Position numbers and translations under genes: made by a program
Part shown: piece after piece, positions 8,906 to 14,900 of the stretch
Position numbering within the stretch: position 1 is the first letter of the stretch
Layout of the letters: every line of letters starts with the position of its first letter
The notes under the pieces: model-generated
Database searches by the model: none
Told to the model about the DNA's origin: nothing
The model's input: the letters and a program-made list of their open reading frames with translations, nothing else
Assembly (NCBI GenBank): GCA_964499895.1
Contig: CAZCPS010000001.1
Span: 1 to 26,344 of the forward strand
From: an uncultured bacterium
Lineage (GTDB): Bacteria > Chlamydiota > Chlamydiia > Chlamydiales > SM23-39
Direction: 5' to 3'
DNA: 26,344 bases

Positions 8906-11900
8906 TGATATCTCGTATAGACGGATCTTCTTATTGGCAAGACGGCAAGTCCGCCGACGGCGCAAAGAGTTATATTTCCGCCTATTATCAAACGCATCAG
9001 CACTATCCTTCATGGAAAGATCTGCAAGAATATATGTCCGTCTCCGATGTGCAAACCGCCGTTCTCTTAAAAGAAATTTTAGATATCTGTCAATTAGACC
9101 GCGAGGCCGGATTATACTACATCGGTATGCTCGGGTTGCAATGCAGCGATCAGGAAAAGACAAACTGTCTTCGGATAATTAATTATTCCTCTTTTACAGG
9201 GCAAATCAAAAGCCTTTTGGCAGACACTTTGGAAAATCCGCCAATCATGATGCAAGCGCTTGATTACATTACAACTTATGCTGAAGATAATGCAGGCAGC
9301 TACCCTCCGCTGCGCAGCCTCGAGAATTATTTCTCGCTAAATAACATCACCAAATTATGCGCTGAGATTAAAGAGCTTTATAAATACAATAAAGATGTTG
9401 GACTGCATTATTTGACCGCGCTCAAGACCGGAGGCACATTAACGGAAGCAATATGCGCTACAATAGAAGCTTTTTGGGGTTATGTTGAAAAAGAAGAGAC
9501 TGAGCATGCCAAAAAAACTGCCGCGGCAGAGGGTGCCAAGAACATCACAACCATCGGAACAAACTCATTACTCTACCCCTCAATAGAGGAACTCTTTAGC
9601 GATCAGGATATAACCTCCCTAACCAAAAAAATACTAAATATCTACACTATAAATGCTACCGTTGGCATGCAATATATTGCCCGGCTGGCGCAAAGATGCC
9701 CTTTCGGCACCGGGTTGTATCAGCAATGCCTGAAAACTCTCGACTTACTGGCGCCGGCAGCCACAAAAAGCGAACTCCTTCAGATTTTTACCGCGCTATC
9801 TGTCATTAAACCATTTATGGCAGAGAATCATAAATATCCTTCATGGTCGGATATTTCCGCCTGTTTTACCACCAGCTATTCCGAGGCCATTTATCAAATA
9901 TTGGATATTTATAAACTGGACAAGCCGCTGGGCCTCTATCTGCTGGGCATTTATAATGAAAAATACTCATCTACCGCGAAAATTTCGGCAGGCAACGCAC
10001 AAGGCGCAACGGGCAACTACGCCAAAAACGCAATCGATGCCGCCATGACATGGAGCTCGTACGCCGCGCGCTACGCGTCGATCCGCGCCGACGCCGCGGA
10101 AATTTTGGCCGCCTATGTTACGCCGATAAAAAGCCTTACCACGCTTAACTATATAAAATCCTTTATCGACACCAACGGCGTTTATCCTTCATGGAAGAAT
10201 ATTTCCTCAAAAATTTCCGGCAACATAAATTATGGCATGGATGAAATATTGGATATTTATAAACTGGACAAGCAAATCGGCCTCTATTTGTTAAGCGTTT
10301 TTAATGAACACTACGACTTTACCAGGATAATCAATCCTACCAATCCTACGGGCATATATAACAACTACGCAAAAAACAGGATCTATGCCGCCATGAACAA
10401 TAGCGGCGCTATGGCAACGCGCTTCGCATCGATCCGCGCTGACGCCGAGGAAATTTGGAACGCTTATGTGAGCCCGCCTAATAGCTATTTAGCACTCAAA
10501 TACATCAAAAGCTACATGGCAAGCAATAAGAACGCTTTCCCTCCCGCAACCGACACGACTTTGAGAGGCCTGCTGCCAACTACAAGCAATATAGTAACAA
10601 CGATGCAAAGCTTTGCTGAATTCTACGCAATAGCGCCCGCTTATAGTGTACAATTAATACAATGGCTGGGCAACAATGTACCCCACAACACTACAAAAAA
10701 CGCCTGCATAGAAATTATTAATAATTTAGCGCTCGATGCTTCCGTAAAATTGGCATTGATAGATGCTTTTTCACTAGGCTCTATCACCGCGCAAATCAAA
10801 CAATATGTTCCATCCATCACCGGTTTGCCGCTGATCAACGATACCGAACTTAAGTTATTGCTAACACAAAATGATCCGGAGACAATCGCAAAAGCGATTA
10901 TAGCCATTTATAACCAGGGCGCCGCCCTTGGAAAAAATCTAATGCAATATTTGGGAGTTTATCTTGCCGAGTCGAGCGCCTCCACAAAAAAACTGGTTAC
11001 CGACACTATTGCCGCTGCCGGACTTACCACCGCTCTCGCCGGCTGTATCAATACCCCCACCGATTATCTGATGGCCATGAATTTTGTCTACAATTTTACA
11101 GAAAAAAATGGACGCCTGCCCGTCTTTTCCGACTTTCCTGAGAATACCGATTGTTATATTAAAAGCTCCGGTTCCGATGTACCTATTAACCGGATCATTA
11201 CCATCTACAATCTCGATGCAAAGATGGGACTCTACCTGATGCAGCTCGAAGGCATAAAGAAAGGCGCTCCGGCAACCAATCTTCAATATATTGTTGGTCA
11301 AGGACTCTCCGCCGACCAAATAACTTCTCTAAAAGAAGCTTATACGGGCGAGGCCGCCACTACTCTCACATACGCCGCCGCAGATAGCATCGCCATTTAC
11401 AACTTTTCTATTAATCAATTTAAAACTACCGGCAAATACCCGACATGGGAGGAAATTAAAGATCTCTTTTTTACAGCAACTTATAGCAGCCCAACCAATA
11501 TCATGTATGCTCTTTTGGATGTTATAGGCATGGATAAAGACTTGGGCTTATATTTGACCAGCCTTTATAACGATAACGCTCCTGACCACTTCTATACCGA
11601 CATTAATGGCAAAACATGCGACTACGGCATCAACATGATCAATAACGCGATGACCGGCGCTTTTTATGAAGCCCGGTATAAGTCGCTTCGCGAAAGCGTC
11701 TCTCTCAATGAAGTCATGACAGCCTATAAAAATTACATTTTCGAAAGCATTTCCATTTATCAATATTGCATTAAAACTTTTAAAGAGACCGGCCTTTACC
11801 CGACATGGGCAACCATTCAACCTCTTTTTTCCACAGCCACTTATGGAAAAGAAAACGAAAGCTCCGGCACCGAAAGCAACACCATGTATGCCATTTTAGA

Positions 11901-14900
11901 TGTTCTGTCTATGGATAAAGATTTGGGCTTATATCTGGTTGGTCTTTATAACACTTGCTCTTTGCACACCTCAGAGATTCCGGCTAACAAAAATCAAGGC
12001 CAATATGGCAACTATGGTGAAAATACGATCTTCGCCGCCCTGACCGGCACCGACCCCGCAATGTTAGCACGATATGAAACTCTCCGCCAAAAAGTTACTT
12101 TCGCTGAAGTCATGACAGCCTATACAACTGTTAAATCCGATGGCATTTCCATTTATCAACATTGCATTAAAACTTTTAAAGATACCGGCCTTTACCCAAC
12201 CTGGGATGACATTAAAACACTTTTTAACCCGGACACGCTCAAGCGCTCCGCCGATGTCATGTATGCCCTTTTGGATGTTATGTCCATGGATAAAAACCTG
12301 GGGCTATATTTAGTCGGCCTTTATAACAAAGTCCTCTTAGCCGGGGCCGCCGCCGGCGGCACTGATGACAACCAGTGTAAAAACGCGATCAGAGCCGCCC
12401 TGACAGGCACCGCCGCTCCAATGTCAACAAGATATGAAGCTCTCCGCAAAATCGCCACCGTCGATGAAGTCATGGCAGCCTATACAACTATCGAATCCGA
12501 CACCATTTATCAATATTGCATTAAAACTTTTAATGATACCGACCTTTACCCGACCTGGGATAACATTAAAAAACTTTTTAACCCGGACATGCTAGCACGC
12601 CCCGCTGATGTCATGTATGCCTTTTTGGATGTTATGTCCACGGATAAAAACCTGGGGCTATATTTAGTCGGTCTTTATAACAAATTCCTCTTAGCCGGTA
12701 CCACCGGCGCCGGCGGCACTGATGACAACCTTTGTAAAAACGCGATCAGAACCGCTCTGACCGGCACCGCCGCCGCAATGTCAACACGATATAAAGCTCT
12801 CCGCCAAAAAGTTACTCTCGATGAAGTCATGACAGCCTATACAACTGTTGCGTCCGACAGCATTTCCATTTATCAAACGAGCGTTAAATCTTTAAAAAAT
12901 ACCGGCCTTTTACCAACCTGGGATGACATTAAAACACTTTTTAGCCCGGACATGCTCACACGCTCCGCCGATGTCATGTATACCCTTTTAGATGTTATGT
13001 CCATGGATAAAAACCTGGGTCTGCATTTAGTCGGTATTTATAACAATTTTCTTTCGCACACCACACCAATTCCCGCCGGTAGCGATCAAGGCGCCGACGG
13101 CAACTATGGTAAAAACGCGATCAGAGCCGCCCTGACCGGCACCGCCGCCGCAATGTCAACACGATATAAAGCTCTCCGCCAAAAAGTTACTCTCGATGAA
13201 GTCATGGCAGCCTATACAAATGTTGCATCCCTCAGCTATTCTATTTATCAAACAAGCATTCAATCTTTAAAAGAGACCGGCCTTTACCCGACATGGGATA
13301 CAGTTTCTAAATTTTTCACCGCATCCACCTCCATAATTGAAATGGTGAGTGTCCTTTTAGAGGTTGTGCCCATGGATAAAGATTTGGGCTTATATCTGGT
13401 TGGTCTTTTTAACAGTTACTATCCGGCGAGCAACTATGCCGCTGGCGGCAATGAGGCGGTAACCACGATTACATGGGCTATGGAGCACAACAGTCCCACA
13501 GTAGCCGAACGGTTCGCAGCGCTCCGCGCAAGCGGCGTCGCTACCTATGAACTCTTGCGGGCTTATAATTATAACATCTCCAAAAGTATTTCCATTTATC
13601 AAACGAGCATTAAAAGTTTTAAAGAGACCGGTTTTTACCCAACCTGGGATACAGTTAGGAAACTTTGCGATAAATACACTTCCCCAACTGAAATAATGTA
13701 TGACCTTTTGATGGTTGTGTCCATGGATAAAGATTTGGGCTTATATCTGGTTGGTCTTTTTAACGATCTTTTGCCGGCCGGCACGAGTGGTCAAGGCGGT
13801 ACAGACGGCAATTATGGAAAAAACGCGATTAGGACCGCCATGGAGAACACCAATGCCGGAATAGCCGCAAGGTTTGAAGCGCTCCGCGCAAGCGGCGTCA
13901 CTCTCGATGAACTCATGGCAGCCTATAATAATAACAGCTCCAAAAGTATTTCCATTTATCAAACGGGCATTAAAAGTTTTAAAGAGACCGGCCTTTACCC
14001 GACATGGGATACAATTTTTAAATTTTTCACCGCATCCACCTCCCAAACCGATATAATGTATGTCCTTTTGGAGGTTGCGTCCATGGATAAAGATTTGGGC
14101 TTATATCTGGTTGGTCTTTTTAACAATCTCGTGCCGGCCGACAAAAGCGGTCAAGGCGGCGCAACCGGCAATTATGGGAAAAACGCGATTAAGACTGCCA
14201 TGGAGAGCACCGATGCCAAAATAGCCTCAAGGTTCGCAGCGCTCCGCGCAAGCGGCGTCACTATCAATGAACTCATGGCAGCCTATGTAAACTCCAATTT
14301 GCTGCTCGCGATCAACAGCTTTGTCCTCAGCGATAAACGGATGCCGATACTTTCCGATGCTATTTTCAAAGACATGCTCGATACAGCGCTCATTCCAACC
14401 TTTATGAACATCTATCTCCTTGATCCTAAAATCGGACTCTATCTGATGGAACTGGCCGGCGCCGCCGGAAAAAATTCCGCCGCTAACATTAAACTCATTA
14501 CCGATTCAGGTTTGGGTGCGGTTGCTATTACGGCCTTGAAAGGCGCCCTCAACACCCCAAGCGAACAAACTCAAAAATATTACGCTATTATGGAATACTA
14601 TAAAACTCATAATAACACCTACCCCCCTCTTTCCAACACGCTGTTTAATGATTACATCTCGGTAGAACTACCGGAAGCATCAGTAGCCCTCATTATTTCC
14701 CTCTATAGCATAGATCAAAACCTGGCCCTATATTTAACGGAACGGCTCGGTTCTACTGTTATTGATGAGGCCAAAAGAAGCGCGGCTTCAGATCTTTTCA
14801 CCGCAGCCGGCCTGCCGACACTTGTTAAGGCGTGGAATGACACCTCCTCCACTATAGATAATTACCTGTATCTGGAAAATTATTTTCAAAAGAATGGCGT

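Follow-up and report, generated by a model that had tools for sequence, protein, structure and literature searches.

A giant repeat gene in a chlamydial contig

The stretch of DNA analysed here (the window: positions 1 to 26,344 of contig CAZCPS010000001.1, assembly GCA_964499895.1, from an uncultured bacterium of the chlamydial lineage SM23-39) harbors a giant orphan gene of 6.9 kb, whose stop-free translation yields a protein of 2290 amino acids (aa). By means of an iterated profile, this protein was resolved into 21 copies of a helical module of ~53 positions (Y..Y...G.YP.w...I....IL.iY.lD..LGLYL), laid out as a helix, G-YP-x-W, a second helix and [LM]D-x-x-LGLYL. Ten of the 21 modules belong to class A (A1-A8, A0a and A0b), in which a loop and then a second half of the pattern KNAI...RY..LR...EVM.AY come after the module; the other 11 are copies outside this class. 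The resulting repeat of ~120 residues makes up the greater part of the protein. Units A1-A8 share 34-78% of their amino acids and 55-88% of their nucleotides (nt), and Tandem Repeats Finder delineated two arrays within them (12034-13299, period 375; 13239-14286, period 360). The ratio of non-synonymous to synonymous substitution rates (dN/dS, omega) is 0.27 in the core of the repeat units, from which we conclude that the open reading frame (ORF) truly encodes a protein and is subject to purifying selection. The 2290-aa protein has no match above cut-off to any Pfam or NCBIfam family, and a scan for typical hydrophobic stretches found neither a signal peptide nor a transmembrane segment. The gene and the elements of its class A units are the following:

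8905..15777, forward strand: giant orphan gene, 2290 aa
9775..10482, forward strand: upstream class A units A0a (aa 291-408) and A0b (aa 409-526), each with a 22-aa loop
9958..10023, forward strand: A0a loop, 22 aa
10306..10371, forward strand: A0b loop, 22 aa
11383..14295, forward strand: tandem class A units A1-A8 (aa 827-1797), 117-133 aa each
11572..11628, forward strand: A1 loop, 19 aa, DNAPDHFYTDINGKTCDYG
11953..12018, forward strand: A2 loop, 22 aa, long type
12328..12378, forward strand: A3 loop, 17 aa
12682..12735, forward strand: A4 loop, 18 aa, 88% nt identical to the A3 loop
13045..13110, forward strand: A5 loop, 22 aa, A2 type
13414..13458, forward strand: A6 loop, 15 aa, the shortest
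13765..13818, forward strand: A7 loop, 18 aa
14125..14178, forward strand: A8 loop, 18 aa, 77% nt and 12/18 aa identical to the A7 loop
11809..11883, forward strand: variable patch after PTW in A2, carrying an insertion
11449-11502, 12205-12258, 12559-12612, 12922-12975, 13297-13344, 13648-13695 and 14008-14055, forward strand: variable patches after PTW in the other units

In all 10 class A units the loop occupies the same place, between a helix ending in ...LGLYLVGLYN and a helix beginning with KNAI. The original prediction, which had described a conserved frame with one hypervariable loop at a fixed position in each unit, quoted eight strings between GL[YF]N and KNAI, and all eight were found at that place in the ORF 8905-15777 (loop lengths in A1-A8 are 15-22 aa; the 12-aa string quoted for A6 ends 3 residues short). 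The range to which it assigned the pattern (11560-14190) does hold the eight loops but leaves out two more class A units upstream (nt 9775-10482), and MDK[DN]LGLYLV, which it described as almost invariant, reads TDKNLGLYLV in A4, MDKNLGLHLV in A5 and MDKDLGLYLT in A1.

Loop variation, selection and probable exchange between units

The mean pairwise amino-acid identity between units is 0.29 in the loop, whereas the first helix reaches 0.70 and the MY..MDKDLGLYLVGLYN core 0.74. Per-site entropy locates the same element, as the most variable run of 22 columns opens with the very first column of the loop (1.63 bits, as compared to 0.57 in the core), and the variable columns are clustered to an extent (autocorrelation) reached in 0 of 5000 shuffles. 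The loop is therefore the most variable stretch of the unit, as had been proposed, but it is one of four variable segments and not a single one: the second patch noted after PTW is confirmed (identity 0.33; in A2 it holds an insertion of 8-9 residues), and it is accompanied by the segment TGTAAAMS (identity 0.34) and by the unit tail (0.28).

Within the loop, variation is unevenly spread. No alignment is possible for the N-terminal half (identity 0.17), in which almost all of the indels fall, whereas the C-terminal half (G/Q-G-x-x-G-N-Y-G) is semi-conserved (identity 0.37, with G and N near-invariant) and recurs as a class-A-like glycine-rich loop in the last module of a 1042-aa paralog encoded on contig C5 of the same genome (the BLASTP alignment spans the loop, E 9e-5). 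This partial conservation, together with the recurrence in the paralog, indicates that the loop is not a free spacer and that part of it is kept; its end (G-x-x-G-N-Y-G) probably forms a structural turn or caps the helix that follows. Inspection by eye spoke against interpreting the glycine-rich end as a Walker-A or EF-hand motif (the spacing is unfit and the context all-helical). An exact 9-bp tandem duplication (CAATCCTAC twice, encoding NPTNPT) lies at 10332-10349 inside the A0b loop, which shows that the length of that loop was changed by slippage or duplication.

The original prediction had further taken the loops for antigenically variable or specificity-tuned binding elements and named dN/dS as a check. 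Pooled over 28 unit pairs, omega in the loop is 0.63, which is close to the flanking helices (0.62-0.65) and above the core (0.27); where the loop alignment is unambiguous (four pairs), it amounts to 0.38, 0.99, 0.64 and 0.66 and thus never exceeds 1. The synonymous rate (dS) itself is higher in the loop (1.25) than in the frame (0.35-0.56), and since the contrast between loop and frame is thereby present at silent sites, protein-level selection on the loop is not its explanation; homogenisation of the frame, with some misalignment, accounts for it. Moreover, the youngest duplicates (A3/A4, 88% nt identity; A7/A8, 84% nt identity) have no excess of changes in the loop (Fisher p 0.55 and 0.57), and the strong excess observed for A5 against A3 and A4 (p 4e-7 and 4e-5) arises because A5 carries an A2-type loop. 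These values (omega of at most 0.99, high loop dS, no excess in the young pairs), along with the four variable segments, the missing reverse transcriptase and the low model confidence at the loops (below), leave that functional half of the prediction unsupported. A diversity-generating retroelement that mutates the loops would share with our data only the broad pattern, in which one patch varies and its surroundings are constant, and we give it a vanishingly small chance: the reverse transcriptase family PF00078 found no match in the 96.5%-complete genome (control genomes were positive) and no such ORF exists in the window, no template repeat lies outside the gene, and the differences between loops include indels and affect every kind of base.

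The per-segment nucleotide identity matrices of the units are mutually discordant. A5 is 87-92% identical to A3/A4 in the patch after PTW, 88-89% in the core and 94-98% in the C-terminal half, and its loop is of the A2 type (65% nt identity, 11/22 aa identical to the A2 loop); A2 in turn resembles A3 in the first helix (93% nt) but A8 in the core (88%). The DNA encoding MDKDLGLYLVGL (11905-11950, 13366-13411, 13717-13762, 14077-14122) is synonymously identical in A2, A6, A7 and A8, and A3-A5 share a second version of the core, which amounts to two core ‘alleles’ whose distribution is independent of the flanking segments. In a permutation test of runs of concordant polymorphic sites, A4 and A5 are joined by a 44-site run (p <= 0.0005), and several other unit pairs reach p <= 0.0015. 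The mosaic make-up of A5 (A3/A4 flanks around an A2 loop) is consistent with gene conversion homogenising the frame, and we infer from these nucleotide patterns that conversion between units may both hold the frame alike and carry loop types around.

The same mosaic units, with one loop type set in a foreign frame, could be read as a variation system driven by recombination within the gene, in which the units store loop cassettes that are reshuffled by gene conversion or unequal crossing-over, so that loop sets would differ between strains or lineages, in the manner of antigenic variation. The long exact nucleotide identities in the frame could guide such recombination, and surface and secreted proteins are also encoded in the window. 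We nevertheless consider this decidedly improbable: with neither signal peptide nor membrane anchor, surface display is not indicated; silent donor copies are absent from the rest of the genome (its paralogs number two, on contigs C5 and C16, and both are distant); no second strain turned up in 100 genomes of the same family or in the GTDB and JGI contigs; and the exchange events are old enough for 2-25% nt divergence. Furthermore, the hosts of environmental chlamydiae are mostly protists, which have no adaptive immunity.

A mosaic could also be produced by chimeric short-read assembly of a tandem repeat, which would put unit order, unit number or the mosaic itself in doubt. The genome is a metagenome-assembled one in 180 contigs, a contig end truncates one paralog, and the frame contains exact repeats of about 45 nt; set against this, no stop interrupts the 6.9-kb reading frame, the units differ by 12-45% of their nucleotides (usually resolvable by short reads), the loops are unique sequences, and the contrast between loop and frame is independent of unit order. 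We regard an assembly artefact as very improbable.

Predicted structure and relatives of the repeat

Two AlphaFold2 models were evaluated, one of a single unit (A2, with the ten units as alignment) and one of three units (A3-A5). The single-unit model (predicted local distance difference test (pLDDT) 84, predicted template modelling score (pTM) 0.80) consists of nine helices; in it the loop is a 21-residue coil (pLDDT about 79-85) and the A2 insertion after PTW is disordered (pLDDT below 50). The conserved frame with a variable loop at a fixed position, i.e. the descriptive half of the original prediction, fits this confident all-helical model, the loop being a connection between helices within the unit. 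In the three-unit model (pLDDT 80, pTM 0.73), helices at 117-132 and 237-253 span both unit boundaries, and the array is accordingly predicted as continuous and not as beads on a string. The loops are its least confident parts (block means pLDDT 51-72; the A4 loop falls below 50 over 9 residues), and in A3 only 5 loop residues are coil, the remainder prolonging the flanking helices. The loops are predicted to be exposed and partly flexible. The opposite picture, that of disordered and neutrally evolving linkers scattered around the structure, is matched by the low confidence and the near-neutral evolution but not in full, as the loops sit at equivalent sites of a regular array and do not link units.

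The protein could alternatively be a specificity-tuned modular binder, a rigid helical scaffold whose units would each use loop and PTW patch to recognise a partner of their own or one element after another of a polymeric target; by analogy with armadillo, HEAT, PPR and TAL-effector arrays, selection would then keep the loops different. The variable loop at a fixed position of a conserved frame, the continuous predicted array with its helical junctions (pTM 0.73) and the fairly confident loop of the single-unit model all favor it, as does the expenditure of 0.55% of a reduced 1.24-Mb genome on one gene, and the persistence of the A5 loop type amid homogenised flanks could mean that selection preserves distinct loops. 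On the other hand, loop omega never exceeds 1, the loops of the neighbours A3/A4 and A7/A8 are almost duplicates of each other, the three-unit model is least confident precisely at the loops, and no ligand, homolog or fold relative indicates a target. On this evidence we hold a tuned binder to be rather unlikely, yet the most serious of the functional alternatives.

Taken together, these observations make it reasonably probable, in our judgement, that the loop pattern reflects ordinary paralogous divergence under relaxed constraint, combined with concerted evolution of the frame, and not programmed hypervariation or diversifying selection. According to this explanation, the loops would be the least constrained part of the unit and would accumulate substitutions, indels and small duplications, while segmental gene conversion (as the mosaic identity suggests) would keep the frame alike even at synonymous sites and shift loop types among units. 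Helices would join the class A units into one continuous helical array, in line with the models, and the variable surface of this scaffold would comprise four segments per unit, with the loop as the largest. The protein is most likely a large soluble binding scaffold. It is possibly exported by a type III system, as circumstantially suggested by the lack of a Sec signal or membrane span, by an SctV/FlhA export gate in the genome and by a small acidic helical ORF directly downstream of the gene.

Several considerations weigh against the explanation by relaxed constraint and homogenisation. Inter-repeat dN/dS is a weak test, as the short loops offer 13-15 synonymous sites, are in part saturated and align with difficulty, which leaves room for an episode of diversifying selection on them; the higher loop dS could partly stem from misalignment, and site-to-site rate differences can inflate the runs test. 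The loop confidence of the single-unit model (pLDDT 79-85) implies that the loops may be ordered and functional, and their conserved glycine-rich end, present also in the paralog, shows that they are no mere spacers. Moreover, secretion and binding are conjecture.

Searches for relatives were carried out at several levels. The class A profile found no relative outside its own genome among 1.84 billion protein representatives; the only two matches that it produced are unrelated low-complexity or immunoglobulin-like repeat proteins, in which summed stretches score by chance. The general module profile, run against 5.8 billion protein clusters (longer proteins), retrieved as its sole match the C5 paralog of the same genome. 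No relative was found by a word-indexed search with the region 840-1800 (near lengths), in 100 genomes of the same family, by peptide-pattern scans of GTDB genome contigs and JGI metagenome contigs, or in the ESM Atlas, and the best E among PDB sequences was 0.056. Among 300 genomes of the same order nothing credible emerged: there were five single weak matches, and the two that were inspected (L015 and L016) are unrelated proteins.

Within the genome, the C5 paralog (1042 aa; L013:2033-5161, C5:12532-15660) comprises at least 7 modules, followed by a Ser/Thr-rich C-terminal region of ~350 aa without a family. The start of contig C16 (L012:3-665) encodes the last 220 aa of a further family member, whose gene is truncated there by the contig end. 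The repeat family probably breaks the assembly, and more copies may be left unassembled. As far as sequence comparison reaches, the family is truly orphan and private to its lineage, found only in three genes of one genome.

At the level of fold, Foldseek returned nothing from the PDB at E <= 0.001 for either one or three units. For one unit, the best Z of a wide VIA-align search (6.2-6.4) lies within noise for helical proteins, and the best alignments are to HEAT-like domains of the MA3/MIF4G/CID type (3l6a_A, Z 6.2, root-mean-square deviation (rmsd) 3.5 over 98 aligned residues; 3eij_A, Z 5.8-6.0; 1sz9_A, Z 6.4); no multi-unit match was obtained (rmsd 15-17). The weak top matches of Foldseek for three units were designed armadillo proteins and importins.

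Genomic setting, known parallels and meaning

The window is a complete contig of 26.3 kb, belonging to a genome of 1.24 Mb in 180 contigs. It encodes a V-type ATPase operon with a DUF2764 gene, tsaB, dnaJ, the 2290-aa ORF, a 109-aa ORF and a 7TM-HD hydrolase, while a TpsB channel, a trypsin-like autotransporter and a large exoprotein are encoded on the opposite strand. Elsewhere the genome carries 4 full TLC nucleotide transporters and 1 SctV/FlhA export gate, an inventory that fits an environmental chlamydia, i.e. an obligate intracellular bacterium. By comparison with positions 7676-18223 of the window, the tsaB-(rpsU)-dnaJ synteny is kept in three related genomes (L026, L027 and L028), in which the giant gene, the 109-aa ORF and the 7TM-HD gene have no counterpart within about 10 kb downstream of dnaJ; the giant gene consequently lies at a lineage-specific synteny break (a rearrangement or insertion point). 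A scan for promoters and terminators of the window yielded promoters not above shuffled expectation. The gene immediately downstream is:

15783..16112, forward strand: small acidic helical ORF, 109 aa, beginning 5 nt after the giant gene and overlapping the 7TM-HD gene by 4 nt, possibly co-transcribed

This ORF is without a family match, and its size, charge and position are reminiscent of secretion chaperones.

We rate the protein as an alpha-helical tandem-repeat (solenoid-like) one with variable surface loops, whose repeat family is new and whose loop behaviour is ordinary. It has in common with the HEAT/armadillo alpha-solenoids and with MA3/MIF4G/CID domains an all-helical build, a hydrophobic conserved frame and variable surface segments (and, with the solenoids, tandem repeats). 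The units differ, however, in scale (117-133 aa with about nine helices, as compared to 30-45 aa with 2-3 helices in HEAT and armadillo repeats), and the HEAT/armadillo Pfam models matched neither the whole protein nor, at E <= 1, any of the ten units when these were scanned one by one. With regard to a superhelix of stacked 2-3 helix repeats, the models are all-helical and continuous, and the fold matches are weak (Z 5-6.4 for one unit, none for three units).

In the TAL effectors of Xanthomonas, repeats of 33-35 aa carry a hypervariable residue pair in an inter-helix loop, which sets the specificity for a DNA base. The present protein resembles them as an array of tandem helical repeats that differ mainly in one inter-helix loop at a fixed position; TAL repeats are nevertheless short and near-identical, with two variable residues, whereas the units described here span ~120 aa, are 34-78% identical and possess four variable segments, with loops of 15-22 aa. 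No sequence or fold similarity to TAL repeats was detected, nor any evidence of nucleic-acid binding.

The nearest biological parallel, by analogy of organisation, is the LGR family of the environmental chlamydia Protochlamydia amoebophila, whose members are large lineage-restricted genes without whole-length homologs, built by serial concatenation of repeats and present as several paralogs (PMC2216083). Its units are 28-residue leucine-rich repeats recognised by Pfam (PMC2216083), in contrast to the unrelated helical unit of ~120 aa found here; leucine-rich repeat families did not turn up in the scans of the protein or of its units. As a framework for the evolution of the array, and not as a family to which it would belong, we refer to repeat evolution under relaxed purifying selection with homogenisation, which is, in its general theme, the subject of PMC5120217; the likeness, at the level of that theme, is that some positions of paralogous repeats diverge fast while the frame is conserved.

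Two further assignments found no support. For a winged-helix domain (LexA/DnaD_N type, a helix-turn-helix with a beta wing after it), DnaD_N scores 18.3 bits (cut-off 27) in one N-terminal module only; neither model contains strands, and winged-helix chains are absent from the 50 best fold matches, an absence of little weight by itself. The chlamydial Pmp proteins, characterized by GGA[ILV]/FxxN motifs, the Chlam_PMP family, an autotransporter barrel and a signal peptide, were set aside on the grounds that there was no Pfam match, the models are all-helical and the N-terminus of the protein has no hydrophobic segment.

A bolder conception would be a programmable helical scaffold of a hitherto unseen repeat family, in which the glycine-rich loop of each unit, held distinct amid a frame homogenised by gene conversion, would read its own host partner or one in a series of elements of a host polymer, and in which recombination within the gene would re-sort the cassettes and thereby retune specificity between lineages. 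We consider it improbable as a whole. Well-known modes of repeat evolution, with loops relaxed and the frame homogenised, explain the loop pattern, and differences among paralogous repeats do not by themselves justify a reading as hypervariability. The main value of the present analysis lies in the anatomy of a new repeat family. As a gene of 6.9 kb has been kept in an intracellular genome of 1.24 Mb, it is probably important to the organism, and helical repeat arrays are typical scaffolds of host interaction; if it is true that the loops set binding specificity, the unit would represent a new natural scaffold-and-loop design.

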